Positions 2,930-49,828 of a stretch of DNA of 64,000 nucleotides are shown in pieces; positions within the stretch are counted from its first letter, which is position 1; every line of letters starts with the position of its first letter. Below the pieces are notes generated by a model. The model was not told the origin of the DNA and did not search any database. It was given only the letters and a program-made list of their open reading frames with translations. The stretch is from Nitrospira sp. GTDB lineage: Bacteria; Nitrospirota; Nitrospiria; Nitrospirales; Nitrospiraceae. The position numbers were made by a program, and so were the translations under genes. The stretch is from NCBI GenBank assembly GCA_020853775.1, contig JADYYH010000093.1:211-64210 (forward strand). The letters are read 5' to 3'.

Positions 2930-5157
2930 CTGTGCCGTACACGACTGGGCTCCCTGAGGCGAACTCCGCCACTGTCGGCCGATCGGCGTTCGGCCTGCGA
3001 GAACACTTGATCACCGTGTTCCGCCAGAAACGTCTGTTGCTCACGATTCTCGGAGTCGCAACCATCGTGGCCGGGCCGGGCTCGTTTTTGATGACCAATA
3101 TCTATAGCGCCGAGGTTCGATTGCTCATCCAGAACGCGCGGACACCGTTCAGCATGAGCACTCCGTTGACGGGGCAGGTGTTCACGCCTTCCGACATCAC
3201 CCAAAAAGACGATGTGGCGACCGAAGTGCAAATTTTTACCAGCCCGATCCTGTTGGATAAGTTGGTCGACTACTTCGGAAATGAACGAGTGCTGGCTTCC
3301 ATGCGTGGGCGGTGGGACTGGGTCGCCGAGCTGCCGAAAACCGCTTTCAAGCAACTGGCCGGTCTGCCGCCGGTCGCACAGTTCCTAGCGACGATCGGGT
3401 ATGCGCCGAAACCCGAGAATCTACATTATCAAGCGGTACAGCAGATCCGGGCTCATTTGAATGTGGAAGGTGTGCGCCAAACGCACGTATTCGTGGCGAG
3501 TCTGGATTCTCCCGACCCGAACTTTTCGGCAGATGCTCTCAACGCCTTGGTCGCCATTTATCTGGATCATCAGTTGTCGATCCGTAAAGGCAAAGGGGCG
3601 CGTGAATTTTTCGATGAACAAACGAAGCAGATGCGCGGCGAATTGCAGCAGGCAGAGCTTCGGCTCCAGGCCTTCAAGGACAAGTGGAATATTGTCTCCA
3701 TCGAGGACCAGAAGCGACACCTCTTGCAGCAGGTGACCCACACGGAGGCCGCGCTTCGCGAAAGTCAGGTACAGGTCGCAGAAACGGAAGTGCGCATCAC
3801 CAAACTGAAGGAACGGCTGGCCGGACAACAAGAAGCGATTCCCCTGACGAACGTCTCCGAACGGAATCCGATGCTGGATCAATTGAAAAACCGGTTGATG
3901 CAGATGGAGTTGGAATACTCGCAGTACGTGCCGGACAGTCCGGCCGCCGCTGAGTTGGTACGAGAAATCGCCGCGGTCCGTGCCCGGCTGCAAGCGGAGA
4001 GTGCAAAAGTGACAGGCGCGGCCACCTCCGGTGTCAATCAAACGTATCAGGAACTGAAGCGTACCCTGGTCATGGAGGAAGGTCGCCGGGAGAGTCTGCG
4101 TCCGCGTCTTTCAGAGTTGACCAAGCAATTCAAGTCCTACCGGGACTCCCTGAATATTCTGGATCAACGTGAAATGGAACTGCAGGGCTTGATGCGCGAG
4201 GTCAAGGTCAAGCAGGAAGCGTTTGACGTCTACCTCAAGAAGGAAGAAGAGTCGCGTATCAATGAAGTGTTGGACCGAAAAGGCATTTCGAACGTCAATG
4301 CGATCGAGCATGCGATGGCCCCTCAGAAGCCGGTCAGACCCCGCAAGTTTCTCAATGTGGTGATCGGACTGTTGATTGGATTGGTCGGAGGATTCGGCTC
4401 GGCCTATGTCTCCGAATATATGCGTCGGACGTTCGTCACCCGTGAGGAAGTGGAAGACACCCTGAAGCGGCCTGTGCTCGCCGCATTGCCGCTCGTACGT
4501 CCCGGTACATCCGATGTGGGCAGTTTCGATCTTGAGTTACGGCAAGCGGCGCAACAGGTCATTCGCTCCTACCATGAGCGTGGTCTCAGAACAGTCCTTG
4601 TCACCAGTGCGCTGCGCGGAGAAGGCCGGTCGTATGTAGCTGCCGCGCTCGCGCGTGTGCTGGCCCAGCAGAAGTTTCGCATGCTGCTCATCACTTTCGA
4701 GGAGGCCGGGTCGGAGCAACCAACGCCGGGTGATGCCGCTGCCGGACTGAAACAGGGGCCGGGGGCGGATCGGCTGCTGCAGGAGACCCCCGAGCCGACT
4801 GATTGCCCGCAGTTGCATCGGTTACTGGTTCGGCACAGGGAGGGCACGGCGCTGGAATTTGCCGAACATCTGGCGGAGGTCGCTAAGACCATGCGGGATC
4901 GTTTCGATTTGATCGTGATTGACGGTCCCGCGTTGACCTCATTTCCTGAAATGCGGGTTGCCATCGCCGGTATCGACGGTACGATTTTGGTGATCGAAGC
5001 TGAGCGAACGGTGTCGGTGGCCGCGAGTAGAACGATCGCGGCGATCGAGGCGGCCGGAGGGCATTTGCTGGGACTCATGTTGAATAAGCGGCGGTACATC
5101 ATTCCGGACTGGATTTATGGGCGGTGGTTGGCGGCCGGTGGGAGGGAGGGCGTATGA
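2926..5157 (+). CDS. wzc: Polysaccharide co-polymerase, Wzc/GumC-like, with degenerate BY-kinase domain
   Basis: TM - Wzz-like region - long coiled coil - PQKPVRP + TM - P-loop-like domain (GEGRS, IVIDGP). GTGA overlap with the upstream gene. Confidence 0.85.
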   Translation: MTVPYTTGLPEANSATVGRSAFGLREHLITVFRQKRLLLTILGVATIVAGPGSFLMTNIYSAEVRLLIQNARTPFSMSTPLTGQVFTPSDITQKDDVATEVQIFTSPILLDKLVDYFGNERVLASMRGRWDWVAELPKTAFKQLAGLPPVAQFLATIGYAPKPENLHYQAVQQIRAHLNVEGVRQTHVFVASLDSPDPNFSADALNALVAIYLDHQLSIRKGKGAREFFDEQTKQMRGELQQAELRLQAFKDKWNIVSIEDQKRHLLQQVTHTEAALRESQVQVAETEVRITKLKERLAGQQEAIPLTNVSERNPMLDQLKNRLMQMELEYSQYVPDSPAAAELVREIAAVRARLQAESAKVTGAATSGVNQTYQELKRTLVMEEGRRESLRPRLSELTKQFKSYRDSLNILDQREMELQGLMREVKVKQEAFDVYLKKEEESRINEVLDRKGISNVNAIEHAMAPQKPVRPRKFLNVVIGLLIGLVGGFGSAYVSEYMRRTFVTREEVEDTLKRPVLAALPLVRPGTSDVGSFDLELRQAAQQVIRSYHERGLRTVLVTSALRGEGRSYVAAALARVLAQQKFRMLLITFEEAGSEQPTPGDAAAGLKQGPGADRLLQETPEPTDCPQLHRLLVRHREGTALEFAEHLAEVAKTMRDRFDLIVIDGPALTSFPEMRVAIAGIDGTILVIEAERTVSVAASRTIAAIEAAGGHLLGLMLNKRRYIIPDWIYGRWLAAGGREGV

Positions 5158-5948
5158 GTGACTCGATCGCGGGAGTAATGCCGGTCAATGACAAGACGGT
5201 CCCTGCAGAGGGATTCGTTCGAGAAGACGGGTGGTATGCGCCCTATGATTATTGGCTCACGTTATGGGGCCTCTATGAGCTGTATGCTTACGCACTGGCC
5301 TTGCTCGGCAATGTGAAGGACAAAGTGCTTCTGGATTGCGGCTGTGGTCCCGGCCATACCTCGGTGATGCTCGCGAAACGCGGCGCCATCGTCACGGCCT
5401 TCGATACGGCCGACGGTCAACTCGAGACGGCGCGCCGATTAGCACAGGCGAATGGAGTGCACGTGACCTTTCTGTGCAAGCCGTTCGAGGAGCTGGATTT
5501 TCCCGACGAGAGTTTCGACGTGGTCTTTGGCACATTCGTGTTGCATCACGTGGATCTTCCGAAGGCTAGTCGGCAATTGGCGCGTGTGCTGAAGCCGGGG
5601 GGAAAGGCAGTGTTCATAGAAAACTCCGCGCTGAATCCCTTGCTCATGGCGGCCAGAAGCAAAGTGTGCGGAAAGTTCGGTGTACCTCAATACAGCGATG
5701 AGCATGAGCACCCGCTCACTCGTCATGATATTGCGACGCTACAGAGCGCTTTTCCCGGCGCCTGCACCATTCATTTTCCGAGTTTCTTGTTCTTTCGATT
5801 GCTCGATTTCTACATGTTCAAGAAGCGCTGGGCGTGGATGACGGCCCTGCTACAACGCTGCGATCAGGTCGCCGGCTCGATATCGTTCGTGCGTCGATAT
5901 GGCTACCTGCAAGTCGTCGAACTGGGTAAGGGAATCGTACGTGCGTAA
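5154..5948 (+). CDS. Class I SAM-dependent methyltransferase
   Basis: Motif I LLDCGCGPG, then FPDESFDVVFG..LHHVD..RVLKPGG. ATGA overlap with the wzc stop. Confidence 0.88.
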   Translation: MSDSIAGVMPVNDKTVPAEGFVREDGWYAPYDYWLTLWGLYELYAYALALLGNVKDKVLLDCGCGPGHTSVMLAKRGAIVTAFDTADGQLETARRLAQANGVHVTFLCKPFEELDFPDESFDVVFGTFVLHHVDLPKASRQLARVLKPGGKAVFIENSALNPLLMAARSKVCGKFGVPQYSDEHEHPLTRHDIATLQSAFPGACTIHFPSFLFFRLLDFYMFKKRWAWMTALLQRCDQVAGSISFVRRYGYLQVVELGKGIVRA

Positions 5949-7215
5949 CGATCTGATCGAATCCGGACTGGGCGTCTGCCGGGGGCTGGTCATCCTGTCC
6001 GGGCTGTTCTTTGCGGCAACGGATATCTGGGCTTCGCCCGCCCCAGAGGCAGTGGCTGGATGTCGGGCCGAAGCCCTTGCGCCGAAAAATCATCGTACCT
6101 CTTTGCCGGATCGCGTCACGCTGATCCCGCCTTCGAACGGCACCTACATCGGCTTATACAGCATCGGTACAATCGCGGAAGACCAGCGGCGATTTGTTGA
6201 GAAAAGCGGGCATCGCCCCGCGATTGTATACACGTTTCACGATTGGGTGTCCGACGACGATTGGGCCTCGTCTTCGCCGCATTTCCGGACCTTCACCGAC
6301 CCGTTAGAATCATCCCGAGTGAGTCCGCTCCAGCTGGCCGAGCAGGTGAGAAAGGAAGGCAGTGTGCTGGCGGTGGCCTGGGCCATCCAGTGTTGCGATT
6401 GGGAGTCCCACTTGTTCTGGTATGGATTTCGGAAGCCGACGGTAACGGTCGATCGTCTTTTGCAGGGCGAATACGATTCGTACATCACGAGCGTGGCCCG
6501 TCAGATTAAGTCCTACGGTCATCCGATCATGCTGACCCTGTTCAGCGAGTTCAATTACCAGGGAATGATGGGATTCGGTAAGCGAGGGGGAGAACGGCTG
6601 GATGAGGTCGCCCATGTCTGTCGTCTGTATGGGGATCCGACATGGCCGGACGGGCCCGAACGCATTAAAGACGCTTTCGTGTACGTCATCGACAGATTTC
6701 GAAAAGAAGATGTGCGAAATGTGACGTGGTTCATGTATGCCGGGTCCCACTATATGAATCCTCGTCACGAGGACTACTCGCAATGGCTGCACCCTCAGTA
6801 TTTCTATCCCGGCGATGACTATATCGATTGGGTGGGGCAGAGCGCGTACTTCATCGATCCCAGAGCCATTCCAAAACTCCGGCAGCAGGAGCTCGCCACG
6901 TCAGTCACGGAGGCATTGGCGCCTGGCTATGTCGCGTGGGGGGCGGTGACTGAGCGGCCGCTGTTTCTTCCTGAGTTCGGGGTGTTGGGAGATAAGACGC
7001 ACAGTCGAGCACGAGTGCTGGAAGAGGTCTTTCGCGACGTGTTGCCCCAGTTCCCTCGAGTGCAGGCCATCACACTGGCTGATTTCAAAATTGCCGAGGA
7101 TTACTACGAAGTGCCCAGGCTTGGCACATTCGAGGATGAAACAGGCGCCTGGAAGCGGGCGGTTCGTGAGAACCCTCACTACCTCAAACAGGTCACCATC
7201 AAAGGCGGGGAGTAG
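5941..7215 (+). CDS. Secreted GH26-like glycoside hydrolase
   Basis: Signal-peptide-like N-terminus, acid/base motif SEFN, FYPGDDYIDWVG, nucleophile motif RPLFLPEFG. GTG start overlaps the upstream stop. Confidence 0.75.
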   Translation: MRNDLIESGLGVCRGLVILSGLFFAATDIWASPAPEAVAGCRAEALAPKNHRTSLPDRVTLIPPSNGTYIGLYSIGTIAEDQRRFVEKSGHRPAIVYTFHDWVSDDDWASSSPHFRTFTDPLESSRVSPLQLAEQVRKEGSVLAVAWAIQCCDWESHLFWYGFRKPTVTVDRLLQGEYDSYITSVARQIKSYGHPIMLTLFSEFNYQGMMGFGKRGGERLDEVAHVCRLYGDPTWPDGPERIKDAFVYVIDRFRKEDVRNVTWFMYAGSHYMNPRHEDYSQWLHPQYFYPGDDYIDWVGQSAYFIDPRAIPKLRQQELATSVTEALAPGYVAWGAVTERPLFLPEFGVLGDKTHSRARVLEEVFRDVLPQFPRVQAITLADFKIAEDYYEVPRLGTFEDETGAWKRAVRENPHYLKQVTIKGGE

Positions 7216-7222
7216 TCCGACG

Positions 7223-8608
7223 ATGGTGCCGAACCGGTCCTCCAAATGGCTGTGCCTCTGTGTGGTCTTTGCGCTCTGTTTCTCCCTGCGCGTCGGGGTT
7301 GGCGCGATCATCGATGCGACGGTGCCGGTCGTCAAACGCGCGGATGTCTATTCGGTCGTTGCCGAAAACCTGGCGCGCGGCTATGGCTTTGTCGCGGAGC
7401 CGGGCGGCGAACCCATTGTCTGGCGTGCCCCGCTCTATCCGGCATTTCTGGCGGCCATCTATGCGCTTTTCGGAGAGCATAACGAAACGGGGGTGTTTCT
7501 GGCGCAATCCGTGTTGGATTCGCTCACCGCCGTGTTGATCTTTTACATGGGAACCCGGTTGTTCGGTGAAGCCGTCGGATTCGTCTCTGCCGTGACCTTT
7601 GCGCTACATCCTCTCTCTGCCTACTACTCCCTTCGTTTCCTGTCTGAGCCGCTGTTTACCCTGGCGTTTACGGCGGTCATCGCATCCTGGATCGCGGCGG
7701 CCACGAGTCGTCGAATCATCGCGTACATGACCGTCGGGGCCTTGATTGCTCTCGCATCATTGGTGAAACCGATTGCGCTGGGCTTATGGCCGTTGCTTGC
7801 GAGCTGTGCCTTGTATCAGTTGAGAGAGGAGCCTGTTCGCGCATGGTTGGCCGCGACTGCGTTGACCGTGGCTTGCCTCATCGCGTTGTCTCCCTGGGCG
7901 CTTCGGAACTATCGTGTGACGGGCGAATTGGTGGCCGTGGCGACCGGAGGGGGCTACGCTCTCTGGCTCGGCAATCAAATGGTGAGCGAGGGGAAGGAAG
8001 ACTGGGAAGTCGACGACATGACCCGGGCACACCTGTTTGCGCGGCGCAGCGCGGTGATTGCAGGAAATGAAGAAGCCGATCGGTTTCTCATCCCTGTCCC
8101 AAGCCGACCGTCGATCCGATCGGCCACGCAGCCGGTTCACATTTCGGTTCCGGAAGATGATGCCTTTTTGAAAGCAGCCTGGCGTGAGATGGTATCTCAT
8201 CCGTTCGGCACGGCGTTGTTGACGACCAGGAAACTGTTCAGGTTTTGGTTCAAGATTTTTCTTCCCGATAATCGCTGGGCGCAATCCTACATTACCTTGT
8301 TTCAAACCTTCTTCCTGGGTGTGGCGGTTCTAGGCCTGCTGGAGGCGAAGCGAAGGGAAATTCCTGTGTTCGCGTTGATTCTACCGGTCATATTCCTTGC
8401 GGTCGTGCATGCGCTGACGTTTGCCACGATTCGCTACAGTATTCCGACTGTACCCGTCATGACGATCTTTATGTCGGTGGGATTACAAGTTGCCGTGCGC
8501 AGGCTGAATGAAAAAATGGGGATGTCCGTCGGCATGTTCTTGAGGCGACCGTTACAGGCCGCGTTTTCGGATAAAGCGATTCTGTCGTCTCGCAGACGGC
8601 GTTCATGA
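7223..8608 (+). CDS. GT-C membrane glycosyltransferase (ArnT/PMT_2-like)
   Basis: Many TM segments, NLARGYGF..RAPLYPAFLA, LSEPLF, PWALRNY, periplasmic loop. Confidence 0.8.
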   Translation: MVPNRSSKWLCLCVVFALCFSLRVGVGAIIDATVPVVKRADVYSVVAENLARGYGFVAEPGGEPIVWRAPLYPAFLAAIYALFGEHNETGVFLAQSVLDSLTAVLIFYMGTRLFGEAVGFVSAVTFALHPLSAYYSLRFLSEPLFTLAFTAVIASWIAAATSRRIIAYMTVGALIALASLVKPIALGLWPLLASCALYQLREEPVRAWLAATALTVACLIALSPWALRNYRVTGELVAVATGGGYALWLGNQMVSEGKEDWEVDDMTRAHLFARRSAVIAGNEEADRFLIPVPSRPSIRSATQPVHISVPEDDAFLKAAWREMVSHPFGTALLTTRKLFRFWFKIFLPDNRWAQSYITLFQTFFLGVAVLGLLEAKRREIPVFALILPVIFLAVVHALTFATIRYSIPTVPVMTIFMSVGLQVAVRRLNEKMGMSVGMFLRRPLQAAFSDKAILSSRRRRS

Positions 8609-8656
8609 TCAGGCGCATAGCCTGCTATTTCAGTATGGAGACGGGGTAACGCGAAC

Positions 8657-9967
8657 GTGCACATCCTGCAAACCGGCATAAAGGTTCTGCTCAGACAGAC
8701 GGCGCTGGTTTTTGCCGGAAAAATGGCGGCGGCCTGCCTGGGTTTTATCATGAGCCTGGTCGTAGCGAGGCTTATGGGACCGGACGAGTTCGGGTTGTTT
8801 TCACTGTTCGTCGTGATTCTGATTCTCGGCAATGATCTGCTTGGAGATGGACTCAATCCTGGGGTCGTCCGTTATTACGCGATGCATAGCATCACGAATC
8901 CGATCAGAGCCTCCGAGGTGTTGACCAATGCGCTTGCCCTGCGACTTCTGGTGGGCATCCCCGTGGTATTGCTAGGGGTGGTTCTCGGAGGTCAGGCCGC
9001 TGAACGACTATTCCAGAACCAGGTCTATGTGCTTCCGATTATGCTTGGCCTGGTCGGGTCCTTCGGCGCGGCTTTGTGGAGTTTTAATCTGGCTGCATGG
9101 CAATCCCGACAGGATTTTTTGACCTATTCTGTGATGGTAGGGCTGGTGAATTTTCTGCGAGTGCTCAGTCTGCCGGTCCTGCTCTTGATGGGACACCTGA
9201 CACTCGGGACCGTTATGGGGCTTCATGTGGTGTTTTTCTATATGTGCACGGTTGCGGGATTATGGATCCTTCGCCCGCATCTGGCTTATGTTCGGCTGAA
9301 TGGGGCACTGCTTCGCGAGCTGTTCCATTTTAGTAAATGGCCGGCATTGGCGAGCACCTGCTTTCTCCTTCAAGTCAATCTCGGGGTTCCGATCCTCAAC
9401 TATTTTTACAGTTCACGAGACGCCGGTGTGTATGCAGCGGGCGTGTCGCTTTTGCAAGGTATAGACTTCCTCACGATCAGTCTATTGACCACGTTGCTCC
9501 CGAAAGTGAGTCAATTGAGCGGGCTCGAGCAATGCCGTGCATATGTCCGGCGCTCATTCCCTCTATACCTGGGGCTCGCCCTCTGCCTCGTTCCGGTGAT
9601 GTTTTTTGCCCAACCTCTTGTGATCGGCCTGTTCGGTTCGGCCTATGAAGGTACCATTCCGGTGTTTCAGATTTTGTTTGTTGGAGTACTGGGAACGCTG
9701 GTGACGCAGCCCTTGTACCTCGTGTTGTATACGATTAACCGCCCTCACCTCTATACGTATTCCGGGTTTGTGGCTCTTGGTGCATGGATTTTCGCAGGAC
9801 TCTGGCTCATTCCCGCATATGGAGCCGTAGGCGCGGCCTTGACGACGTTGTGTGCCCGCCTCATCCAGTCTGTACTGATCGTCGTCATCATCTGGCACGC
9901 ATTGGAGTTCGGCGCGTCGTCGGGTCTGGCTGTACGTTCCATGATCTCGAATGTAAGGGAATCATGA
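8657..9967 (+). CDS. wzx: Oligosaccharide flippase (Wzx/MOP family)
   Basis: About 12 TM; ARLMGPDEFGLF, DAGVYAA, LIPAYGAVGAA motifs; operon context. Confidence 0.88.
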   Translation: MHILQTGIKVLLRQTALVFAGKMAAACLGFIMSLVVARLMGPDEFGLFSLFVVILILGNDLLGDGLNPGVVRYYAMHSITNPIRASEVLTNALALRLLVGIPVVLLGVVLGGQAAERLFQNQVYVLPIMLGLVGSFGAALWSFNLAAWQSRQDFLTYSVMVGLVNFLRVLSLPVLLLMGHLTLGTVMGLHVVFFYMCTVAGLWILRPHLAYVRLNGALLRELFHFSKWPALASTCFLLQVNLGVPILNYFYSSRDAGVYAAGVSLLQGIDFLTISLLTTLLPKVSQLSGLEQCRAYVRRSFPLYLGLALCLVPVMFFAQPLVIGLFGSAYEGTIPVFQILFVGVLGTLVTQPLYLVLYTINRPHLYTYSGFVALGAWIFAGLWLIPAYGAVGAALTTLCARLIQSVLIVVIIWHALEFGASSGLAVRSMISNVRES

Positions 9968-11361
9968 AGACCTCACAGGCGACCGTTGGTCCGAGCTTGG
10001 CCGGTGCCGTTTTGGGAGCCTCCGTGCTGGCGCTCTCCACAAAGGCCCTCGCCATTGTCGTTGCCGGAACGGCATTGGCGGCGATGGCGTCGTCGGCCGT
10101 CTTTCCCTATTACATTCTGGTGGCCACGATCCCCGTTCAGGTCGATCTTTTGGGAGGCATTACCGTTACCAAATTCATCACGCCGTTGGCCATCGGGATG
10201 GTATTGTTCAATGCCTTGATTTATCGCGGCCCTTGGCCGGTCATCGCGCGTTGGCCGGCCGGTTATCTCGCGATTGTATTCTTCGTCACCTCCATGGTGT
10301 CACTGTTCCTCGCGGAAGGCGTACGAGGATTTCCGGGTGAGGCCGCAAAAATTCCCGTCTACTGGGCGCTCTTTTTCTTCACCCTGACCTTCAATCGAAC
10401 GGCCGCTGATTTTCGTCGCCTTCTCTGGATCATCACCATCACCGGTATTGCGGAGGCGCTCATTACGGCCGCACAAGTGCAGTACGGGTTTGTCATGCCC
10501 GGAGATTGGCGGAGCAATATCGGTTTGCCGAGTGAAGGAGGGATGGACGGCGCGTTCATGTCTTTTTCTGAGGGAAAAATAAGAGCCGAGGGCACAACCG
10601 CCCATCCGATTCTGCTCGCAAGCTTTTTCTTGATGGCGATCCCGTGCACGGCTTTTCTCTTCATGACGGAAGGCTCCTCTCGGGTCAAAGTATTTCTGTG
10701 CGGCGCGCTTGTTTTGATGGGCTATGCCTGGTTCTACACGTTCGCTCGAAGTTCCATTATTGGTTTTGCAGTCGTATGTGTCGTGACCATGTGGTTTCAC
10801 TCGAAGCTCACTCGAAATCTGGTCTTGGCCGGCATCGGGATTCTCATTACAGGCTTGTTAAGTTATCAGGTGATCTCGCAAGTATTTCAGACCGGCATTC
10901 AACTGTTTGACAGTCAGAGTCTGTTCGGGAAAGCCGACTTGAACGACGGCAGTGGAAGCTTCGATTTTCGAATTGAATCCATCGTCGGTGGATGGAATCT
11001 CTTCTGGGTTCATCCGTGGTTCGGTGTCGGATTTGGTCAGTCGATCAATCACTACACAACATATTTGCCGGCCTGGGCCACCCATCCATTTCACCCTGCC
11101 ACGATTCACAATGTGTTCCTAGAGGTGGCGTGCGAACTGGGAGTCTTTGCGACATCGGCGTTCATTGGCTTGTGGATCTGGGCATTTGTCTCAGTGAGGC
11201 GCGCGCTTCGTATTGTCGAACTGAGACCATACGCCGTGTTACTCCTCGGCATCCTGCTGGGGCAAGCGGCCTTTTTAATGATTACCCCGATGGTAAGAGA
11301 AATCTGGCTGACGTTGGCCATGGCGACTGCCATTGGCCATATGGCGAGGAAAGCGACATGA
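9964..11361 (+). CDS. O-antigen ligase/polymerase family protein (Wzy_C), probable polymerase
   Basis: Multi-TM protein with TFARSS, PWFGVGFG, HNVFLEVACELG. ATGA overlap at 9964. Confidence 0.82.
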   Translation: MKTSQATVGPSLAGAVLGASVLALSTKALAIVVAGTALAAMASSAVFPYYILVATIPVQVDLLGGITVTKFITPLAIGMVLFNALIYRGPWPVIARWPAGYLAIVFFVTSMVSLFLAEGVRGFPGEAAKIPVYWALFFFTLTFNRTAADFRRLLWIITITGIAEALITAAQVQYGFVMPGDWRSNIGLPSEGGMDGAFMSFSEGKIRAEGTTAHPILLASFFLMAIPCTAFLFMTEGSSRVKVFLCGALVLMGYAWFYTFARSSIIGFAVVCVVTMWFHSKLTRNLVLAGIGILITGLLSYQVISQVFQTGIQLFDSQSLFGKADLNDGSGSFDFRIESIVGGWNLFWVHPWFGVGFGQSINHYTTYLPAWATHPFHPATIHNVFLEVACELGVFATSAFIGLWIWAFVSVRRALRIVELRPYAVLLLGILLGQAAFLMITPMVREIWLTLAMATAIGHMARKAT

Positions 11362-12638
11362 CACAGCTCCGCGCACTTCATTTGCGTAATTGCCGAGGGA
11401 TTACCGATATCACCGGGCCTGAAAACTATTTGCTGTCGCTTATTCCAAGGCTCAATCAGCAAGGGTGTGAAGCAAGTCTTGCCTGTGTGGTCGATCCTGA
11501 GCGCGGGGAAACACCATGGCTGAACGAAGCCAAGCGGTGTGGCTTGCCGATGGTCACGATTCCGGTGACCAACCGGCTGAGCGTGCGTGATGTATTGGCT
11601 GTCGTCCGGCTGGTTCGGGAGAGAGGAATAGACATTATTCATACCCATGACCATCGGGCCGATGCGGTTGGAATCATGGCTGCACGGATCACAGGATGCG
11701 CCGTGGTCGCCACGTTTGCCGGATGGACCAATTGGCCGTCGGGAACTCTGCGAGGGACTTTATATCCTTGGATTGATCGTCAGGTGCTCGGGTACGCAGA
11801 CGCTCTGATTTCAGATTCGGCGATGATGGCCGCTCAGATCGATCAAGGAACTTCGGGACCGCCGGTTGTAGTCATTCCAAATGGCGTAGACACGGAAGTA
11901 TTTCATCCGGACAGTCCGAACCGCCGAATGTGGGAATCTGGCGAAGGGCAGCAACCATTTGTCCTAGGTATGGTGGGACGGATTCACCCCAACAAAGGCC
12001 AACTGGAATTCCTCAAAACGGCGGCGACGATAACGAAGAGCCATCCTGAATGCCGGTTTCTGATTGTGGGAGAAGCTCCGCCAGGTTACGAACCATACAA
12101 GGCCGACGTATTGCGGTTCATCGAAGAAAAAGGACTGGAAAATGTGGTGACCGTCACCAAAGCGAGCAGAGCGCAGATACCGGGCATCGTAGCCGGCATC
12201 GATATGTTAGTGGCTCCATCGTTCACAGAAAGTTTTAGTTTTGCACTCATCGAAGCCATGGCCATGGGGAAACCTATCGTAGCCACGAACTCTGGGGGCA
12301 CCCCTGAGCTGATCGCACACAATGAGACCGGTGTGCTCATCGATCCTGGGAATGTTGAGCTTCTCACTCTCACGGTGCGCGATCTGATGAAAGACCAGGC
12401 AAGAATGAGACGTTTAGGGACAACAGCGTGTGAATACGTGCAGCGGCATCTCAGCGTTCAGTCAATGTCAGTGAAGACGTTAAATATTTACCGAGAAGTG
12501 GTTGCGTGGCGCAAACAACGCCGAACAGGTGTCTTTCAGGGGCCTGCCCTTGGTGAACGATTGCGGCAGACGTTGGTCCTGGATAAGAGACAGACTGAAC
12601 CTGAACCTCTTCGCCATCTTGATGCTGACGTAAACTGA
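11358..12638 (+). CDS. GT4 glycosyltransferase
   Basis: DIIHTH, VIPNGVD, ESFSFALIEAMAMGKPIVAT..GGTPE. ATGA overlap at 11358. Confidence 0.92.
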   Translation: MTQLRALHLRNCRGITDITGPENYLLSLIPRLNQQGCEASLACVVDPERGETPWLNEAKRCGLPMVTIPVTNRLSVRDVLAVVRLVRERGIDIIHTHDHRADAVGIMAARITGCAVVATFAGWTNWPSGTLRGTLYPWIDRQVLGYADALISDSAMMAAQIDQGTSGPPVVVIPNGVDTEVFHPDSPNRRMWESGEGQQPFVLGMVGRIHPNKGQLEFLKTAATITKSHPECRFLIVGEAPPGYEPYKADVLRFIEEKGLENVVTVTKASRAQIPGIVAGIDMLVAPSFTESFSFALIEAMAMGKPIVATNSGGTPELIAHNETGVLIDPGNVELLTLTVRDLMKDQARMRRLGTTACEYVQRHLSVQSMSVKTLNIYREVVAWRKQRRTGVFQGPALGERLRQTLVLDKRQTEPEPLRHLDADVN

Positions 12639-42364: not shown

Positions 42365-42412
42365 AACTTTGACGCTTCCACCGTCAAGCGACCAAACTTT
42401 GGCGCTTCCATC
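42365..42412. promoter_or_regulatory. Tandem candidate activator sites (UAS-like)
   Basis: AACTTTG(A/G)CGCTTCCA(C/T)C repeated at a 30-nt period; first copy contains the palindrome TTGACG-N7-CGTCAA (42369-42387). Confidence 0.55.
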
Positions 42413-42557: not shown

Positions 42558-42573
42558 TGGCACCGAACGTGCA
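42558..42573 (+). promoter_or_regulatory. sigma54 (-24/-12) promoter for the DUF3365/chemosensory cluster
   Basis: TGGCACCGAACGTGCA: GG-N10-GC, one mismatch to TGGCAC-N5-TTGCW. Confidence 0.65.
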
Positions 42574-42714: not shown

Positions 42715-43449
42715 ATGGCAAATCATTTTCTCAGCAGAATCGTAATGACGGTCCTGACGGCGGCGTGTGTGGGCGTGCCCGTTGCCGCGTCGGCGAATAC
42801 TGAGGTGGAAACGGCTGAATTGCTGATCAAATTGTTACAAGTCGGCCGCGGAGTACTGTCGGAGAACCAGGCGACGATCAATGACGCCAGCAAGGGCGAC
42901 AAGGGGATTACCGGGGACTACATCGCCAACCAGGTTATCGACCGGTTCCGCAAAGCAACGAAGATCGACTTGAGCCGTCCGGCCACTGTGCCGCAGGCGC
43001 CGCTGTTCCTCGCCATGGTCGAATCGGAAAAAGAAGTCATCGATGAGGCCCAGCCCGTGATCAACAAGCAGGGCGTCGGCTTTAAAGGGATTATCCCCGC
43101 CGTGTTTGCACGCAAATCTGGCGAGCGGTTCTACCGGAAAACCGGGATTCGCGTGAAGCTTACGAGCATCGATTATCGTTTTCCCGGCAACCGCCCGGAT
43201 GATTTCGAATCCGAAGTGTTGCGGATTTTTTCCGACTCGCGCCATCCCAAGGGACAGCCGTACAGCAAGGCCACCATGTTGGATGGAAGAGCGGTGTTGC
43301 GCATGATGGATCCGGAATATGCCGCGACGACATGCCTCAGTTGCCATGGGAATCCGAAAGGCGAGCGCGATGTCACGGGCGCCAAGAAGGAAGGCTGGCA
43401 TGAGGGCGACTTGGCCGGCGCCATCAGCATTGTCATTCCTATGAAGTAG
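42715..43449 (+). CDS. Exported DUF3365 (Tll0287-like) c-type heme protein
   Basis: Signal peptide (..AASA), FRFPGNRPDDFE-like segment, CLSCH heme motif, GWHEGDLAGAISI. Confidence 0.82.
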   Translation: MANHFLSRIVMTVLTAACVGVPVAASANTEVETAELLIKLLQVGRGVLSENQATINDASKGDKGITGDYIANQVIDRFRKATKIDLSRPATVPQAPLFLAMVESEKEVIDEAQPVINKQGVGFKGIIPAVFARKSGERFYRKTGIRVKLTSIDYRFPGNRPDDFESEVLRIFSDSRHPKGQPYSKATMLDGRAVLRMMDPEYAATTCLSCHGNPKGERDVTGAKKEGWHEGDLAGAISIVIPMK

Positions 43450-43515
43450 CACGACGGCGCATTCGACATGCGGCTGTCGCAAAATTCTGGATGGTTGTGA
43501 AGGGGGGATGGATTC

Positions 43516-43878
43516 ATGAGCAAAATTGTTGTGGTCGATGATTCGTACGCCGAACTGCAGTTGATCGAAGGATATCTCAAATCCGCCAACCACACGGTGG
43601 TGTCCTATCCCAACACCGATAAACTCGAAGATAAGTTGGCGCTGGATAAGCCGGATTTGATCGTGTTGGACGTGGTCATGCCCGGGCGCAATGGATTCCA
43701 AGCCTGCCGCGACCTGAAGGGTGATGACCGGTTCAAAGGCATTCCGATCGTGCTGTGCACCTCCAAGGGGCAGGAAAGCGACAAGTTCTGGGGGCAGCAA
43801 CAGGGGGCAAACGGCTACGTGGTCAAGCCGTTCAAGGCCGAAGATCTGGTCGCAGCCGTGAAACGGGCACTGAACTAA
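43516..43878 (+). CDS. Single-domain response regulator (PilH/CheY-like)
   Basis: VVDDS, LDVVMP (Asp), DKFWG, KPF. Confidence 0.93.
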   Translation: MSKIVVVDDSYAELQLIEGYLKSANHTVVSYPNTDKLEDKLALDKPDLIVLDVVMPGRNGFQACRDLKGDDRFKGIPIVLCTSKGQESDKFWGQQQGANGYVVKPFKAEDLVAAVKRALN

Positions 43879-43881
43879 CTT

Positions 43882-44427
43882 ATGAGCGACGTTCCCATCA
43901 TCCAGTCTCAACCGTCCGCTTCCTCTCCGGCCCAAGGATCCTCCGCTTCATCGAGGGCTTCCGCCGCACCGACCGAAGGCGCGCTGCGCATGTGCGTGTT
44001 GACATTGGGAGGAGAACTGTTCGCCATCGATCTCCGCCATGTCAGTGAAGTGTTCGAGGTGGAAGCCGTGACGGCCGTCCCCAGTATGCCCGGTTATCTG
44101 ACGGGAGTGACCAACCTTCGGGGAACGGTGATCACGCTGGTTGATTTGCGCGGGAGCCTCGGCTTGTCGATGAGCAACACGTCGCTGCCCTTCGCGGTCG
44201 TGATCCGTCACGGCGTCAGGCAGGTGGGAGTACTGGTCGATCACGTGCCGGAAATTCATACGGTGGCCCGCGAGCACCTGTTGCCTGCCATGCAGGCGGG
44301 ACCGGCTGGCGCGAGACCCTGTGTGTCGGCCGTGTTGCGTCTGGATCAACGCCTGGGAGGCGTCTTGGAAGTGCCGCAGGTCTTCGCGCAAGTGGACGGA
44401 GGAAGTGCGGCAGTATCGGTCGTGTAA
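43882..44427 (+). CDS. cheW: CheW adaptor
   Basis: FAIDLRHVSEV, GVTNLRGTVITLVDL, GVLVD. Confidence 0.9.
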   Translation: MSDVPIIQSQPSASSPAQGSSASSRASAAPTEGALRMCVLTLGGELFAIDLRHVSEVFEVEAVTAVPSMPGYLTGVTNLRGTVITLVDLRGSLGLSMSNTSLPFAVVIRHGVRQVGVLVDHVPEIHTVAREHLLPAMQAGPAGARPCVSAVLRLDQRLGGVLEVPQVFAQVDGGSAAVSVV

Positions 44428-44520
44428 GAAACAGAGCTATGACGGTTCGGGGCCGGCGCGAGCAGGGATTGTGCGACCGGCCTTGAACATTGAGCACGCA
44501 GTAACAAGGAGGAGCGCACC

Positions 44521-46395
44521 ATGATCGGGCAAGGCGTCACCAATCGATTCCAGGATATGAAGACACGATCGAAGCTGCTGCTCAGTTTCGGTCTGGTGAG
44601 TTTCATCATCATGATCATGGCCAGCGTCGGTGTGTTCACTCTGCGGCAGCTCAGCGCCCAATCGCAAACCGTGTACGTGGATTACACGGTCCCGTTGGCC
44701 GAATTCGCGCAGATGGGAACGGCGCTCACCAAGCATCACCAGATCCTGTTGGACGTCGCCTCTGCCACCAAGCAAAGCGACTTTGCCCAGGAAGTCACGA
44801 AGCTCCCGCCGTTGAAGGCCGAAATCGAGAAAGCGGTCAACAACTACAAGAGCACCAACTTGCGGGTGTCACGATCAGGCCGCGACGAAATGAAGGACCT
44901 CACCCTGTTCGAGCCGGCGCTCAAAAGATATTTTCATGAGGCCGATGGCGCCCTGAGTGCCATGGCAGACAGTTTCGATCGCAACACGCTGACCGCGGCC
45001 CAGGCCGAGCAAATGCGAGCGCTCGGTGTCTTGGCCTTGACGGTCAACTTGACGCCTGCATTCGAAAATGCGGTGAAGCGCCACAATGAGCAGGTCACGA
45101 GCATTGAAGCGGTGGCCAAGGATCTGAACGACGACGCCCAGTCTCTGTCCGCCAACGGTACATTTATTCTCGTGGCCGGTGGTCTGGTCGCTGTGGCCCT
45201 GGGATTGTTCGTCGGATATCTCCTGGCGACTTTCTTGTCACGGAACATTACGCACATTGCGAATGTCGCGACTCAGGCCGCCGGCGGCAACCTCCAAGCG
45301 CGCGCCAGGATTGAATCGCATGATGAGCTGGGGCAGATGGCCACGGCGTTCAACTCCATGCTCGATCGTATTTCGGTGCTCGTGTCGACGGAGGAAGAGC
45401 GCGACTTGATGCAGAAACGCCTGATGCAATTCCTCGTACTCGTGTCCGAAGTGGGTAAAGGAGACTTGACCCGCCGAGGCGAGGTGACCGCCGACATGTT
45501 CGGAAACCTTGCCGACGGTTTCAACCTCATGATCGCGCGATTCGGCCAGTTGTTGAAACAGGTGCGTGAAGCCGCCGACCGCGTGAACAAATCGGCTGGT
45601 ACGCTCCGTGATTCGGCCGGTCAGATGTCCGGAACGGCACGCACGCAGGCGGAAGAGTCGGTGCGAACGCTGGGCGCGGTCGAACAGCTGGCCGCCGGTA
45701 TGCGTCAGGTCGCCACGACGGCCGGCGCCTCGTCGGATTCCGCCAAGCAAGTGCTGTCAGCAACAGAACGCGGAAACGTGGCCGTGCAGGAAACGGTGCG
45801 CGATATGCAGAGTATTCGTTCCGCGGTGCAACGCATGTCCAAGCAGGTAAAGGGCCTCGGCGACCGTTCGCTCGAAATTTCTCAGATCGTATCGACCATT
45901 CGAGATATCGCCAACCAGACGAACCTCCTCGCGCTCAACGCCGCCATCGAGGCGGCGGGCGCCGGTGAGGCCGGTGCGCGATTCGCCGTCGTCGCCGACC
46001 AGGTGAGAAAGCTGGCGGAAAGTTCCACGCAAGCCACACGCGAAATTGCCGACCTCGTCAAAGTGATTCAGACAGAAACGCAGGATGCGGTGGTCGCGAT
46101 GGAACATGAAACACAGGCGGTGGAAGCCGGATCTGCTTCGGCTCTCCGGACCGGTGACGTGTTCGCCGAAATTTCAGACATCGCGAAACGGTCATCCGAA
46201 CTGGCCCAGAATATCGCCAGCGCGGCGTCAGACCAGACCTCCTCGACGGAAAAAGTCGGCCGCGCGATTAAGGAATTCACGGGAGGCGCAGTGGCGACGC
46301 AGAAACAAACCGACTCCACGCGACTCACGATCGAGGATATGGCCAAGCTGGCCGAAGGCCTCAACTCCTCAGTCGCTCAGTTCAAGCTGACGTAG
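44521..46395 (+). CDS. Methyl-accepting chemotaxis protein (PilJ-like)
   Basis: TM - four-helix periplasmic domain - TM - HAMP; [38 protein letters not shown]. Confidence 0.95.
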
Positions 46396-46447: not shown

Positions 46448-49400
46448 ATGAGCGCTGATTTTGATCGCGACCAGCTGCTGGACATTTTCGTGGCCGAAGC
46501 CGGCGACGACATGGAGCGGTTCTGGAAGGCACTCCATCCGGAAGGGAAGGTGCGTCCCGAACCGGGTGAGGTCGCCGAATTCCATGCTGTGGGCCATAAG
46601 TTAAAAGGCGCGGCACTGCTGTACGGTTTTCCTGGTCTCGGGCAACTCGGCGCGTTACTGGAAGAGACGCTGGAACGTGTTCAGGAGATGTCTCCGAGTC
46701 AGTGGCCGGTCGCCTTTGAGGTGATCCGGGATATCGTCGCATCCTTTCGTCAGCAGGTGGCCAGGATCGGCCGTGGCGAAGGTGAAGATGCCTCTCTCGT
46801 GGACGGGTTTGTGCAACGGTGCGCGCACTTCCTGCCGGCGGCCTCCGATGACGACTCAGCACAGTCCCTCACCATCTCGACCGAGCCGGCGGATGACTAT
46901 CTTTTGCCTGTGATGGACGAGGAGGTTCTGTCGTACTTTGCCCCCGAAGCCGAAGAGTATCTCAATACGATTCAGAGCCTTCTCCAGCGTTTAGAGATTG
47001 AGCTGTCCGACGCGGAGACGATCCACCAGCTGTATCGTGTCGCCCATACGCTCAAGGGGTCGGCCTATACGGTGGGATTCCAGGTCGTGGGTGATGTGGT
47101 ACTGCCGATTGAAATCTGCATGATCGCGGTTCGTGAGGGAACGGCGGTTATTTCCTCGCAATGGATTGCCACGATTCGCCATGCGGTGGACGTGATGCGT
47201 TCGTTGATGGCGCGAGACAGGCAGCAGCTGCCGCGGTTGCGGCAGGACGTGCCCTGTATTACGGCGATGCTGCGGGAGCTGGAGCAAGGCATGCCGCAAG
47301 TCGCACAGGCGGATGCGGTTTCCTCGCCAGGCAAACATGCGCCTGAGGAGAACGGTATCCCGCCTGCGGCCTTGCCTGTCGATGCTGCGGCGCAGTCCTT
47401 AGAGCCCAACCCCTCGGTCGAATTGTCGGAAGCCTATCTCATTCCGATGCTGGATGCCGAAGTCATCTCCTATTTCGCCCCCGAGGCCCAAGAGTATCTG
47501 GAGAGTCTCGAAACCGACTTGCTGCGAGTGGATAAGGATGCGGCTAACCCTGACATCATCCACCAACTGTTTCGCACGGCTCATACGTTAAAGGGATCAG
47601 CCTATACCGTCGGGTTCCAATCGATTGGGGACCTGACACACCACATCGAAGATTTCATGGGCGCGGTTCGCGAGGGCCGCCTGAGGTTTCTTCCCGGCCA
47701 TACGGATGTGCTTCTGCGGGCAATCGACGTCATTCGTGCCCTGATGCGGCGCGACCCCTCGATGCTCAGCCGGACTCGACAGCGGTTTGCCGTAGCGCTT
47801 CAGGAATTGAGGGGGTTGGGTGAAGCCGCAACGACAGGAGCCATCGAGCCTGCTGTGTCCTCGCAGACCGACACAGTCGTGCCCCTCGATGGGCATGACT
47901 CTGAGACGGCTGAGCCTGTTACGGCCGGCGAAGGAAAAGCCGGAGAAGAGCGGGAGGTGATCCGTGTCAGCCGCGATCGGCTTGAACGCCTGCTCAATCT
48001 GGTCGGCGAATTGGTGATCGATCGCGGACGTCTCGAACAGCGGTTGCGCACGCTGGATCAACTGGCGACTCAAGTGTTAGCCAATAAGAATCGCCTCACG
48101 GATGCCGTACGGACATTTGAAGACAAACACACCTTCTCCTTTCAGCCCTCTCCCACGACCCAGGGAGAATCCATGCCGCAGGCGTTCCCTGGTGTCAGCG
48201 ACTTCGGCAGCCTGGAATTCGATAAGTACGATGACTTCAATATTCTGGCCCGTCGCATCAGCGAGGTGACGGCGGACATCAACGAATCCATGTCGCAGTT
48301 GTCCGGATCGATCCACCGTGCTCAGGACGACATGGGCTCACTGCAACAGTTGACGCTCGGCATGCGCGATGAAATCGCCCGCGCCCGTATGGTGCCGATC
48401 GGTACCCCGTTTACCAGGTTCCGTCGTGCGGCCCGCGAAATGGCCAGGGCCACGGGGAAAGACGTGAATTTGGTGACTTCCGGTGAACATACAGAAATCG
48501 ACACCGGCGTCGTCGAGCGTTTGGTGGACCCGCTGGTGCATTTAGTCAGAAACGCCGTGTACCACGGCATCGAGCCGGCGGCCGTCCGCCGAGTTCAGGG
48601 TAAGCCGGCGGCGGGGACGATTTATCTGCACGCTGCGCATCGAGGGAACTCGGTGTTGATCGAGGTCGAAGACGACGGCGCGGGGCTCGACATCGCCAAG
48701 ATCAAGGCGAAGGCCATCAAGCTGGGGCTCGTCAGGCAGGATGTCGCTGAAACCCTTCCCGAAAGCGAAGTCATCAAGTTCATCTTCCTGCCAGGATTTT
48801 CCACCGCCGATGCCGTCGGCGACCAAGCGGGACGTGGCGTCGGCATGGATGTGGTGAAGCGCGTCATTGAGACGATGAACGGCCATATCGAGGTGGAATC
48901 GGTGCGCGGGCAGGGTACGAAGTTCACCATGCATTTGCCGCTCACCCTGTTGATCGCCACGGCATTGCTCGTGCGGGTCGGAAAGGAACGTTATGCGATT
49001 CCTCTTCCGAGTGTGCGCGAAGTGACTATGTCGACGGCGTCAACGTTGCAACAGATGGGCGATCGGCAGGTGGTCCAAATCGGGGACGAGGCTATCGAAG
49101 TCTACCCACTCGGCAGCCTCATTCGTCGCGAGGCCGGGACGACAGACGGCGTCTCTCCCGTGGTGATTGTGCGCACCTCGACCGGCGCGCTCGGCTGTGC
49201 GGTGGATGAGTTACTGGGCCGGCAGGAAATCGTTATCAAGTCGCTGGGCGGACTGAAGCCGTATGACCGCTCGGTATTCGGTGGCGCCACGATCGATCCG
49301 GAGGGACGTGTGGTGCTGGTGTTGGACGTCAGTCGCCTGACCACCCGTGAATATCATGAAACCATGTCCATCGCGCCGGCTCCGGTGGTGTCAGCGATTG

Positions 49401-49828
49401 AAGACGCGACAGGGCACAGCGATGCGCGACCGGATGTCCGCTCGCCCTTACCGCTGCTGTTGATCGACGATTCACTCAGCATCCGAAAGTTCGTGGGCCG
49501 TATGCTCGAAGCCGCCGGGTATACCGTCGAAACAGCGACGGACGGCGAAGAGGGCTGCCGCAAAGCGATGGCGCAAGCCTACCAGTTGATTATCACCGAT
49601 CTCGAAATGCCCAAGTTGAACGGCTATGAAGTCATTCAAGCCCTTCGCGCGAGGCCTCAGACTCAGGCGACGCCGATTCTTGTGATGACGACGCGGGCAG
49701 GGGAGAAGCATCGCCAGATGGCCGTCAGTGTCGGCGCATCGGGCTACATTGCCAAGCCGGTCGAAGAGCGGGCCTTGATTCAGGAAGTGCGCAAATGGAC
49801 CGGTGTCGAGGCACGGGCTGAAAAGTAA
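46448..49828 (+). CDS. cheA: Hybrid CheA/ChpA-like kinase: 3 Hpt, dimerisation, HATPase, CheW, REC
   Basis: HKLKG, HTLKG, HTLKG; HLVRNAVYHG, DDGAG, FLPGFST, GRGVGMDVV; C-terminal IDDS..TDLEMP..KP. Confidence 0.95.
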   Translation: MSADFDRDQLLDIFVAEAGDDMERFWKALHPEGKVRPEPGEVAEFHAVGHKLKGAALLYGFPGLGQLGALLEETLERVQEMSPSQWPVAFEVIRDIVASFRQQVARIGRGEGEDASLVDGFVQRCAHFLPAASDDDSAQSLTISTEPADDYLLPVMDEEVLSYFAPEAEEYLNTIQSLLQRLEIELSDAETIHQLYRVAHTLKGSAYTVGFQVVGDVVLPIEICMIAVREGTAVISSQWIATIRHAVDVMRSLMARDRQQLPRLRQDVPCITAMLRELEQGMPQVAQADAVSSPGKHAPEENGIPPAALPVDAAAQSLEPNPSVELSEAYLIPMLDAEVISYFAPEAQEYLESLETDLLRVDKDAANPDIIHQLFRTAHTLKGSAYTVGFQSIGDLTHHIEDFMGAVREGRLRFLPGHTDVLLRAIDVIRALMRRDPSMLSRTRQRFAVALQELRGLGEAATTGAIEPAVSSQTDTVVPLDGHDSETAEPVTAGEGKAGEEREVIRVSRDRLERLLNLVGELVIDRGRLEQRLRTLDQLATQVLANKNRLTDAVRTFEDKHTFSFQPSPTTQGESMPQAFPGVSDFGSLEFDKYDDFNILARRISEVTADINESMSQLSGSIHRAQDDMGSLQQLTLGMRDEIARARMVPIGTPFTRFRRAAREMARATGKDVNLVTSGEHTEIDTGVVERLVDPLVHLVRNAVYHGIEPAAVRRVQGKPAAGTIYLHAAHRGNSVLIEVEDDGAGLDIAKIKAKAIKLGLVRQDVAETLPESEVIKFIFLPGFSTADAVGDQAGRGVGMDVVKRVIETMNGHIEVESVRGQGTKFTMHLPLTLLIATALLVRVGKERYAIPLPSVREVTMSTASTLQQMGDRQVVQIGDEAIEVYPLGSLIRREAGTTDGVSPVVIVRTSTGALGCAVDELLGRQEIVIKSLGGLKPYDRSVFGGATIDPEGRVVLVLDVSRLTTREYHETMSIAPAPVVSAIEDATGHSDARPDVRSPLPLLLIDDSLSIRKFVGRMLEAAGYTVETATDGEEGCRKAMAQAYQLIITDLEMPKLNGYEVIQALRARPQTQATPILVMTTRAGEKHRQMAVSVGASGYIAKPVEERALIQEVRKWTGVEARAEK

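Follow-up and report, generated by a model that had tools for sequence, protein, structure and literature searches.

MBP–Tar, RBP/GBP–Trg, LuxP–LuxQ and TorT–TorS are binding-protein-dependent inputs of chemoreceptors or kinases, and H-NOX and NosP are cytoplasmic haem-b sensors of nitric oxide (NO) encoded beside their partner kinases or cyclases. We analyzed a 64,000-nucleotide (nt) stretch of Nitrospira sp. DNA (assembly GCA_020853775.1, contig JADYYH010000093.1, positions 211 to 64,210 of the forward strand), referred to below as the window, in which the gene for a stand-alone exported haem protein precedes a cluster of chemosensory genes that includes one for a transmembrane methyl-accepting chemotaxis protein (MCP). 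We lean somewhat towards the view that this haem protein acts in trans from the periplasm as an accessory haem sensor of the operon's MCP, with NO or a related nitrogen oxide, or the redox state, as the probable ligand.

The locus resembles MBP–Tar, RBP/GBP–Trg, LuxP–LuxQ and TorT–TorS in its soluble periplasmic ligand-binding protein, for which docking on a helical domain of the receptor in the periplasm is proposed here, and LuxP and TorT in that the protein is encoded with its receptor and the linkage with a transmembrane receptor is conserved. Unlike in those systems, the proposed sensor is a haem Cache domain and not a Venus-flytrap solute-binding protein, and the docking is a supposition. 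With H-NOX and NosP, which also served as comparators in a 2026 preprint on the family of the haem protein, it shares a stand-alone haem sensor gene in the operon of its would-be signalling target, NO as a candidate ligand and a cyclic di-GMP (c-di-GMP; HD-GYP) step downstream; it differs from them in the periplasmic haem c, the fold and the MCP as partner.

The family of the protein itself was described in two 2026 preprints, in which Tll0287-like/DUF3365 was renamed sCache_heme and about half of its domains were reported to be stand-alone (10.64898/2026.02.01.703092; 10.64898/2026.05.25.727664). A preliminary description of this DNA had called DUF3365 domains usually fused to kinases or MCPs, which is inexact in view of that share (10.64898/2026.02.01.703092). 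A dichotomy was proposed between stand-alone proteins (Cluster 1, with Tll0287 and the Pseudomonas putida protein), which have Cys/His ligation and a redox role, and signalling-fused domains (Cluster 2), which have no axial Cys and hold NO tightly, with slow release and no stable O2 complex (10.64898/2026.02.01.703092). The preprints contain no gene-neighbourhood analysis, and whether stand-alone members signal was stated as an open question (10.64898/2026.02.01.703092). The features of the window that bear directly on this question are as follows.

42715–43449, plus strand: gene for the stand-alone exported sCache_heme (Tll0287-like/DUF3365) protein, 244 aa
43333–43347, plus strand: CLSCH c-type haem attachment motif, residues 207–211
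44521–46395, plus strand: transmembrane MCP, 624 aa, the proposed partner; 4HB_MCP_1 (E 1.3e-15), HAMP and MCPsignal domains

The ATG of the haem gene is preceded by an AGGAGG Shine-Dalgarno sequence, and the product begins with a Sec-type signal peptide (residues 1–27, MANHFLSRIVMTVLTAACVGVPVAASA|N, with an ASA|N site). CLSCH is the sole CxxCH, and the mature chain has no further Cys. The protein matched Pfam PF11845 (Tll0287-like) with E 8.6e-25 and 88.3 bits against a cut-off of 24.1. Its layout comprises the signal peptide, an extra helical module (28–94) and a haem-Cache core (95–244). Pfam and an AlphaFold2 model, built from 52 sequences, agreed on one domain with no output domain and no transmembrane (TM) helix beyond the signal peptide, as the preliminary description had it for the signal peptide, the one CxxCH and the missing TM and output domains. 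The model had a pLDDT of 91.4 and a pTM of 0.83 and showed a single compact domain, in which the signal helix is followed by the extra helices 28–50, 52–55 and 67–82 and then by the Cache-type core. In the model, CLSCH sits in a short helix (205–211) between strands 192–202 and 233–242, before the last strand, and the same CxxCH position is the haem insertion of the sCache_heme family (10.64898/2026.02.01.703092). The best Foldseek match among PDB structures was Tll0287 (5B82; E 1.7e-5, TM-score 0.60, root-mean-square deviation 2.4 Å over 123 columns), followed by the sensor domain of the Geobacter haem MCP GSU0935 and then by the CitA Cache. A lipoprotein reading was rejected, as Cys18 of the signal peptide is not kept in the orthologues. 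Altogether, the product is predicted to be a soluble periplasmic mono-haem-c Cache protein, presumably loaded with haem.

The question of its class was addressed by comparison with the fused and the stand-alone members. A phmmer search with the haem protein as the query retrieved MCPs and histidine kinases through their N-terminal haem domains, with E-values from 1e-19 to 1e-21. Twenty-four invariant columns were common to the haem protein and the fused domains of four MCPs and four kinases, among them Q113, N117, K124, P128, R155, N159, D162, E165, R196, P200 and the CLxCHG block. The phmmer search against PDB sequences found no match, Tll0287 included, and a 52-sequence profile of the subfamily reached Tll0287 only at E 1e-3. 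No conserved Cys was present in the subfamily alignments of 40 and 52 sequences. Counted from the profile match, Cys68 of Tll0287 falls at about Pro128 of the haem protein; this correspondence is only approximate because a search with a short-type paralogue against the PDB, aimed at aligning the Cys68 region, gave nothing useful. With no mature Cys outside CLSCH, the haem protein cannot have the Cys/His ligation that the "redox" stand-alone prototypes show. Hence the axial Cys that marks Cluster 1 is absent from the haem protein; it carries the sequence signature of the fused domains of Cluster 2 and lacks the TM segments and the signalling module that these have in the same polypeptide. Judged by homology, the haem protein is an MCP/kinase-type sensor head in detached form, and it has no axial Cys of the kind seen in the "redox" stand-alone type.

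The signal peptide and a conserved 65-residue helical module (with a LINDxxKGDKGFT motif) replace TM1 of the fused sensors, and the haem protein ends at the point where their TM2 would begin. Positions E30, S49, R133, E137, Y154, E167, K179 and E201 are specific to the orthologues. With the fused sCache_heme receptors, i.e., the GSU0582 and GSU0935 MCPs of Geobacter sulfurreducens and the Cache_heme–HAMP receptor of P. azotoformans, it shares the Pfam family, the fold, the CxxCH insertion, the lack of an axial Cys and the periplasmic location. Unlike them, it has no TM helices, HAMP or output domain; it has a cleavable signal peptide and the extra helical module (28–94), and its signal would have to cross between two proteins. 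Like Tll0287 (Thermosynechococcus, 5B82) and the P. putida protein, it is stand-alone and exported, with one haem c, here predicted. Unlike them, it has no Cys for Cys/His ligation, shows very low sequence similarity to either and stands in a chemosensory operon context, none being reported for those two proteins.

The association with MCP genes was found to extend far beyond the genus. In a maximum-likelihood tree of the stand-alone "long" subfamily, rooted on fused domains, the subfamily was monophyletic (support 99). Its basal member (L090) precedes the gene of a 685-aa MCP. In clade A (support 100), which includes Dissulfurispiraceae, 7 of the 11 members adjoin MCPs of 496–844 aa, and all members of clade B (support 95), made up of the Che-operon orthologues and a sister pair flanked by MCPs, are MCP-adjacent. 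The partner MCPs are different two-TM receptors with haem-less periplasmic domains of about 130–450 residues. In the classical Che operon of one locus (L048, G285:C2:95000-114000), positions 2575–12425 encode CheY, CheA, CheV, CheB, a haem-fused MCP, a free-standing sCache_heme protein, a haem-less MCP and CheW; the stand-alone gene is thus flanked by two MCP genes, one whose product has an sCache_heme domain (CIGCH) fused to it and one whose product is haem-less. A recent copying of the neighbouring fused domain was considered for this gene and rejected, the two being only 27% identical (E 2e-5). As MCP genes make up well under 1% of the genes in these genomes, the recurrence of MCPs is not due to chance and reflects either ancient retention or repeated re-association. 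On the evidence of the tree and the neighbourhoods, the MCP linkage of the stand-alone subfamily is deeply conserved, with haem-less transmembrane MCPs in three deep lineages. The family and the general logic were already known; of the stand-alone, Cys-less, MCP-linked subfamily no description was found in the literature searched.

A separate observation concerns the sister type. At L084 (8593–9822), the MCP gene right after the sister-type haem gene is cut after HAMP and lies beside an opposite-strand IS3-like transposase open reading frame (ORF).

Within Nitrospiraceae, 51 genomes were surveyed, with 55% identity or more taken to define an intact orthologue. Such an orthologue was present in 33 of the 51, lying less than 2 kb from the MCP orthologue in 32; in the remaining genome a contig end cuts the locus. 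The same gene order was seen in N. japonica and other metagenome-assembled genomes, and the haem gene was retained both in loci that have lost the REC gene (L075-L077) and in those with other genes upstream (L074, L078). Synteny, named in the preliminary description as a check on the split sensor, was therefore borne out, the linkage being conserved well beyond the genus.

The remaining features of the operon and its upstream region are listed below.

42365–42410, plus strand: pair of direct repeats of 16 nt each, AACTTTGACGCTTCCA and AACTTTGGCGCTTCCA, which lie 30 nt apart
42558–42573, plus strand: sigma-54-type -24/-12 element with the sequence TGGCACCGAACGTGCA, located 142 nt upstream from the ATG of the haem gene
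43450–43515, plus strand: gap of 66 bp between the haem gene and the REC gene
43516–43878, plus strand: single-domain response regulator (REC; PilG/PilH or CheY-like), 120 aa; Pfam Response_reg, E 1.2e-23
43882–44427, plus strand: CheW-like coupling protein; Pfam CheW, E 9e-29
46448–49828, plus strand: CheA-type kinase, 1126 aa, with three Hpt domains and a C-terminal receiver

Two CheW-like genes and the genes for a receiver/coiled-coil protein, a pseudo-Hpt protein and an HD-GYP protein lie beyond CheA. The MCP is the sole transmembrane protein of the operon. Its TM segments (about residues 20–38 and 209–227) enclose some 170 periplasmic residues (about nt 44638–45135), which form a cofactor-less four-helix-bundle domain without Cys, followed by HAMP and the signalling domain. 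Both the distance of 66 bp to the PilH-like gene and the periplasmic four-helix domain of the MCP had been given correctly in the preliminary description. The genome encodes one CheA, two MCPs, FlhA and RpoN, and since this CheA is the only one in the assembly, the operon is the genome's only chemosensory pathway. CheR and CheB_methylest had no match anywhere in the genome, which is 100% complete. With Pil-Chp and Wsp of Pseudomonas the operon shares the order REC-CheW-MCP-CheA and a CheA with several Hpt domains and a C-terminal receiver; it differs in the absence of CheR and CheB from the genome, in the haem protein at its head and in the pseudo-Hpt/HD-GYP tail. The label "Chp-like" therefore holds only for the gene order, which is of the PilG/H-PilI-PilJ-ChpA type of the Tfp-class systems, because the adaptation enzymes PilK (CheR) and ChpB (CheB) are absent.

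A consensus scan of the gap found no promoter-like or terminator-like site; its RNA folded no better than shuffled sequences (z -0.41), and it has no U tract. In orthologous loci the gap measures 41–85 bp. The sigma-54-type element was the sole such match on both strands of the window with one mismatch allowed, against 1.2 matches expected, and so alone is not above chance; its weight comes from its position and conservation and not from the window count. Eight loci of the same genus keep it as TGGCACCGAWCNTGCA, 149–155 nt upstream of the respective orthologue, and a variant, CGGCACAATAGTTGCC, stands about 170 nt upstream in four loci of another genus. No comparable element occurs between the haem gene and the REC gene, and none was found in several divergent loci or upstream of the cluster in the comammox (complete ammonia-oxidizing) loci L049, L050, L055, L141-L151 and L155, which include two that still keep the haem gene. 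The regulation of the operon in comammox may thus have changed before the haem gene was lost. The direct repeats lie 150–190 nt upstream of the sigma-54-type element, the first containing the palindrome TTGACG-N7-CGTCAA (42369–42387), and are candidate sites for an enhancer-binding protein (activator); rpoN is present in the genome. Most likely, the haem gene is the first gene of the operon, made from the sigma-54-type promoter and co-transcribed with the genes that follow.

As an observation in its own right, a motif TCGCACA(C)ATTTA (TCGCAAAATTCT, 43476–43490 of the window) recurs, within the genus, in the orthologous gaps of L061-L069 and L098, about 25–35 nt ahead of the start of the REC gene. 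Its recurrence may be due simply to close relatedness.

In the mechanism that we favor, the haem protein would bind a small haem ligand, with NO as the best guess and hydroxylamine or the redox state as alternatives. Through protein–protein contact it would report its state to the periplasmic domain of the MCP, a haem-less four-helix bundle, and this contact would then modulate CheA and the downstream receiver/HD-GYP branch, the haem protein acting as an accessory, binding-protein-style input.

The findings that weigh against the proposed role in MCP signalling are gathered in this and the following paragraphs, beginning with the repeated loss of the gene. In 15 Nitrospiraceae genomes (comammox) the MCP cluster is kept and the intact haem gene is missing, leaving a pseudogene, relics or nothing. 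In G293 the gene is a pseudogene, interrupted by two in-frame stops; the relic in G162 and G100 has a deletion of residues 61–181; and a clade of nine genomes retains heavily decayed relics with other stops and CLLCR instead of CLxCH. In the MCP tree, G174, with an intact haem gene, is sister to G293 (support 100), and the three relic types are not nested, which implies at least three separate inactivations. A genome of another family (G258) has the cluster and no trace of the haem gene. Conversely, the haem gene is intact at L082 although the Che cluster has been deleted. Evidently, the haem gene is dispensable to the operon. Its repeated loss with the operon intact makes it an accessory input and not the receptor's only one, and because the operon is kept without it, the MCP must have an input of its own.

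AmoC was found in all 15 genomes that lost the gene, which identifies them as comammox Nitrospira. The gene was lost in none of the 26–27 AmoC-negative genomes with the cluster, and it is still kept in six AmoC-positive ones. Because these genomes are related, the association can be read as a pattern but carries no statistical weight. That the gene was lost more than once in comammox suggests that the sensor exists for an ecological reason.

Two loci deserve separate mention. L082 (7872–16693) contains the haem gene, a coiled-coil remnant like the tail of the receiver/coiled-coil protein and then lpxD, fabF and lptF/G, the genes that flank the cluster in the window. In L054 (G265:C1:1758000-1776000), a comammox locus, the whole cluster looks decayed, with REC, MCP and CheA each split into two ORFs.

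The co-evolution analyses gave one result in favor of contact with the MCP and others against it. In favor, the stem leading to the nine-genome clade with no intact haem gene, the largest clade that lost it, carries 0.61 substitutions per site in the periplasmic domain of the MCP and 0.013 in its cytoplasmic part, a ratio of 46 compared with a tree mean of 2.6; the direct identities for this clade were 0.50 (periplasmic) and 0.90 (cytoplasmic). A second clade lacking the haem gene (L055, L141) had a ratio of 2.4 and no periplasmic acceleration, and other periplasmic bursts occur in lineages that have the gene, and for these reasons the burst is only suggestive. A mirror-tree/partial Mantel analysis set the haem protein against the periplasmic domain of the MCP, with the cytoplasmic domain partialled out and CheW as a control. 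The value of 0.26 (p 0.03) was lower than that of the CheW control (0.46), so no specific signal was detected. The haem protein–MCP contact is plausible on the comparative evidence. The split sensor put forward in the preliminary description thus finds partial support, from comparative evidence: the detached sensor head recognized by homology and the conserved MCP linkage speak for it, and the repeated loss with an intact operon and the missing mirror-tree signal speak against it.

Among the alternatives, the one that survives best, and which we nevertheless regard as unlikely, is a co-expressed periplasmic redox or NO-handling haem protein (an electron carrier, an NO buffer or a cytochrome c'-like scavenger) that does not signal to the MCP. 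The P. putida protein, the only stand-alone member with a biochemical study, showed the behavior of a redox protein (10.64898/2026.02.01.703092), and it is from these data that a redox role was given to stand-alone sCache_heme proteins in the 2026 preprint. Furthermore, most Nitrospiraceae paralogues are beside non-signalling genes: clade C (37 members, support 100), the largest Nitrospiraceae clade of the tree, has moved beside genes for an SBP_bac_3-like protein, peptidases, FGE-sulfatase and DUF6754. The Che cluster that functions without the haem gene in comammox genomes and the haem gene kept without the cluster at L082 fit this explanation too. Against it, the haem protein lacks the axial Cys of that class, its core is far nearer to MCP/kinase sensor domains than to Tll0287, and a general redox protein would not need a linkage to different MCPs across three deep lineages.

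Decidedly less probable is a trans-acting haem sensor for another membrane protein, e.g., a sensor kinase, or a decoy or competitor rather than an activator. The missing specific co-evolution with the MCP periplasmic domain would agree with this, as would two of the paralogues in the same genome, a short-type one whose gene overlaps that of a sensor kinase (C4) and another near a kinase and a CHASE2 cyclase (C70). The MCP, however, is the only transmembrane protein of the operon, and the recurrent neighbor in relatives is an MCP and not a kinase. The least probable explanation, a mere neighbor with its own transcription and no functional tie, accords with the dispensability of the haem gene and with the cobalamin genes upstream of it, which are equally syntenic within Nitrospiraceae and make part of the haem gene–MCP linkage plain inheritance, but it does not account for an MCP linkage that recurs in distant lineages with unrelated flanks, for a short, conserved gap without a terminator, or for a conserved sigma-54-type element upstream of the haem gene and not of the REC gene.

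Some features of the paralogues were noted in passing. The same genome has seven stand-alone loci of the Tll0287-like/DUF3365 domain. The commonest neighbor in clade C is an exported protein of 350–378 aa, with a weak SBP_bac_3 match in one case (L099, L100, L103, L105, L109, L112, L114, L116-L118, L122, L125, L128, L134-L136 and, in the same genome, C119:18753-20595). Its gene ends about 17–26 bp before the clade C haem gene, or slightly overlaps it, in most loci, and the gap is 210–341 bp in L109 and L136; the two products may form a two-protein periplasmic module. At C4:46567-49706 of the same genome, a short-type Tll0287-like gene (197 aa, CVKCH) has a 16-bp overlap with the end of the gene for an 853-aa sensor histidine kinase, and this pair is a candidate second split haem sensor, here with a kinase. 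At C60:10140-10573, a Tll0287-like paralogue is in two pieces with an internal TGA and is probably a pseudogene.

The view of the haem protein as an accessory sensor for the MCP may be carried further, to a reading that we consider possible but doubtful. According to it, the stand-alone Cys-less sCache_heme protein and the haem-less chemoreceptor would be an old two-gene module, and MCPs would here have their first periplasmic haem gas sensors of the binding-protein type. Nitrite-oxidizing Nitrospira would use the module to signal NO (or hydroxylamine) in the periplasm to the sole array and the c-di-GMP branch, and it would have been discarded at least three times after ammonia oxidation was gained, the reason being that comammox bacteria make NO and hydroxylamine internally. 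If true, this would overturn the proposed rule that stand-alone members are redox proteins and fused ones sensors.

The locus offers a testable case, a single chemosensory pathway made up of one kinase, one receptor and one haem protein in soluble form. If the accessory sensor reading proves true, a haem co-sensor acting in trans would be a new mode of chemoreceptor input, and it would offer a way into the question of how nitrifiers perceive NO or the redox state in the decision between the biofilm and the free-living state.

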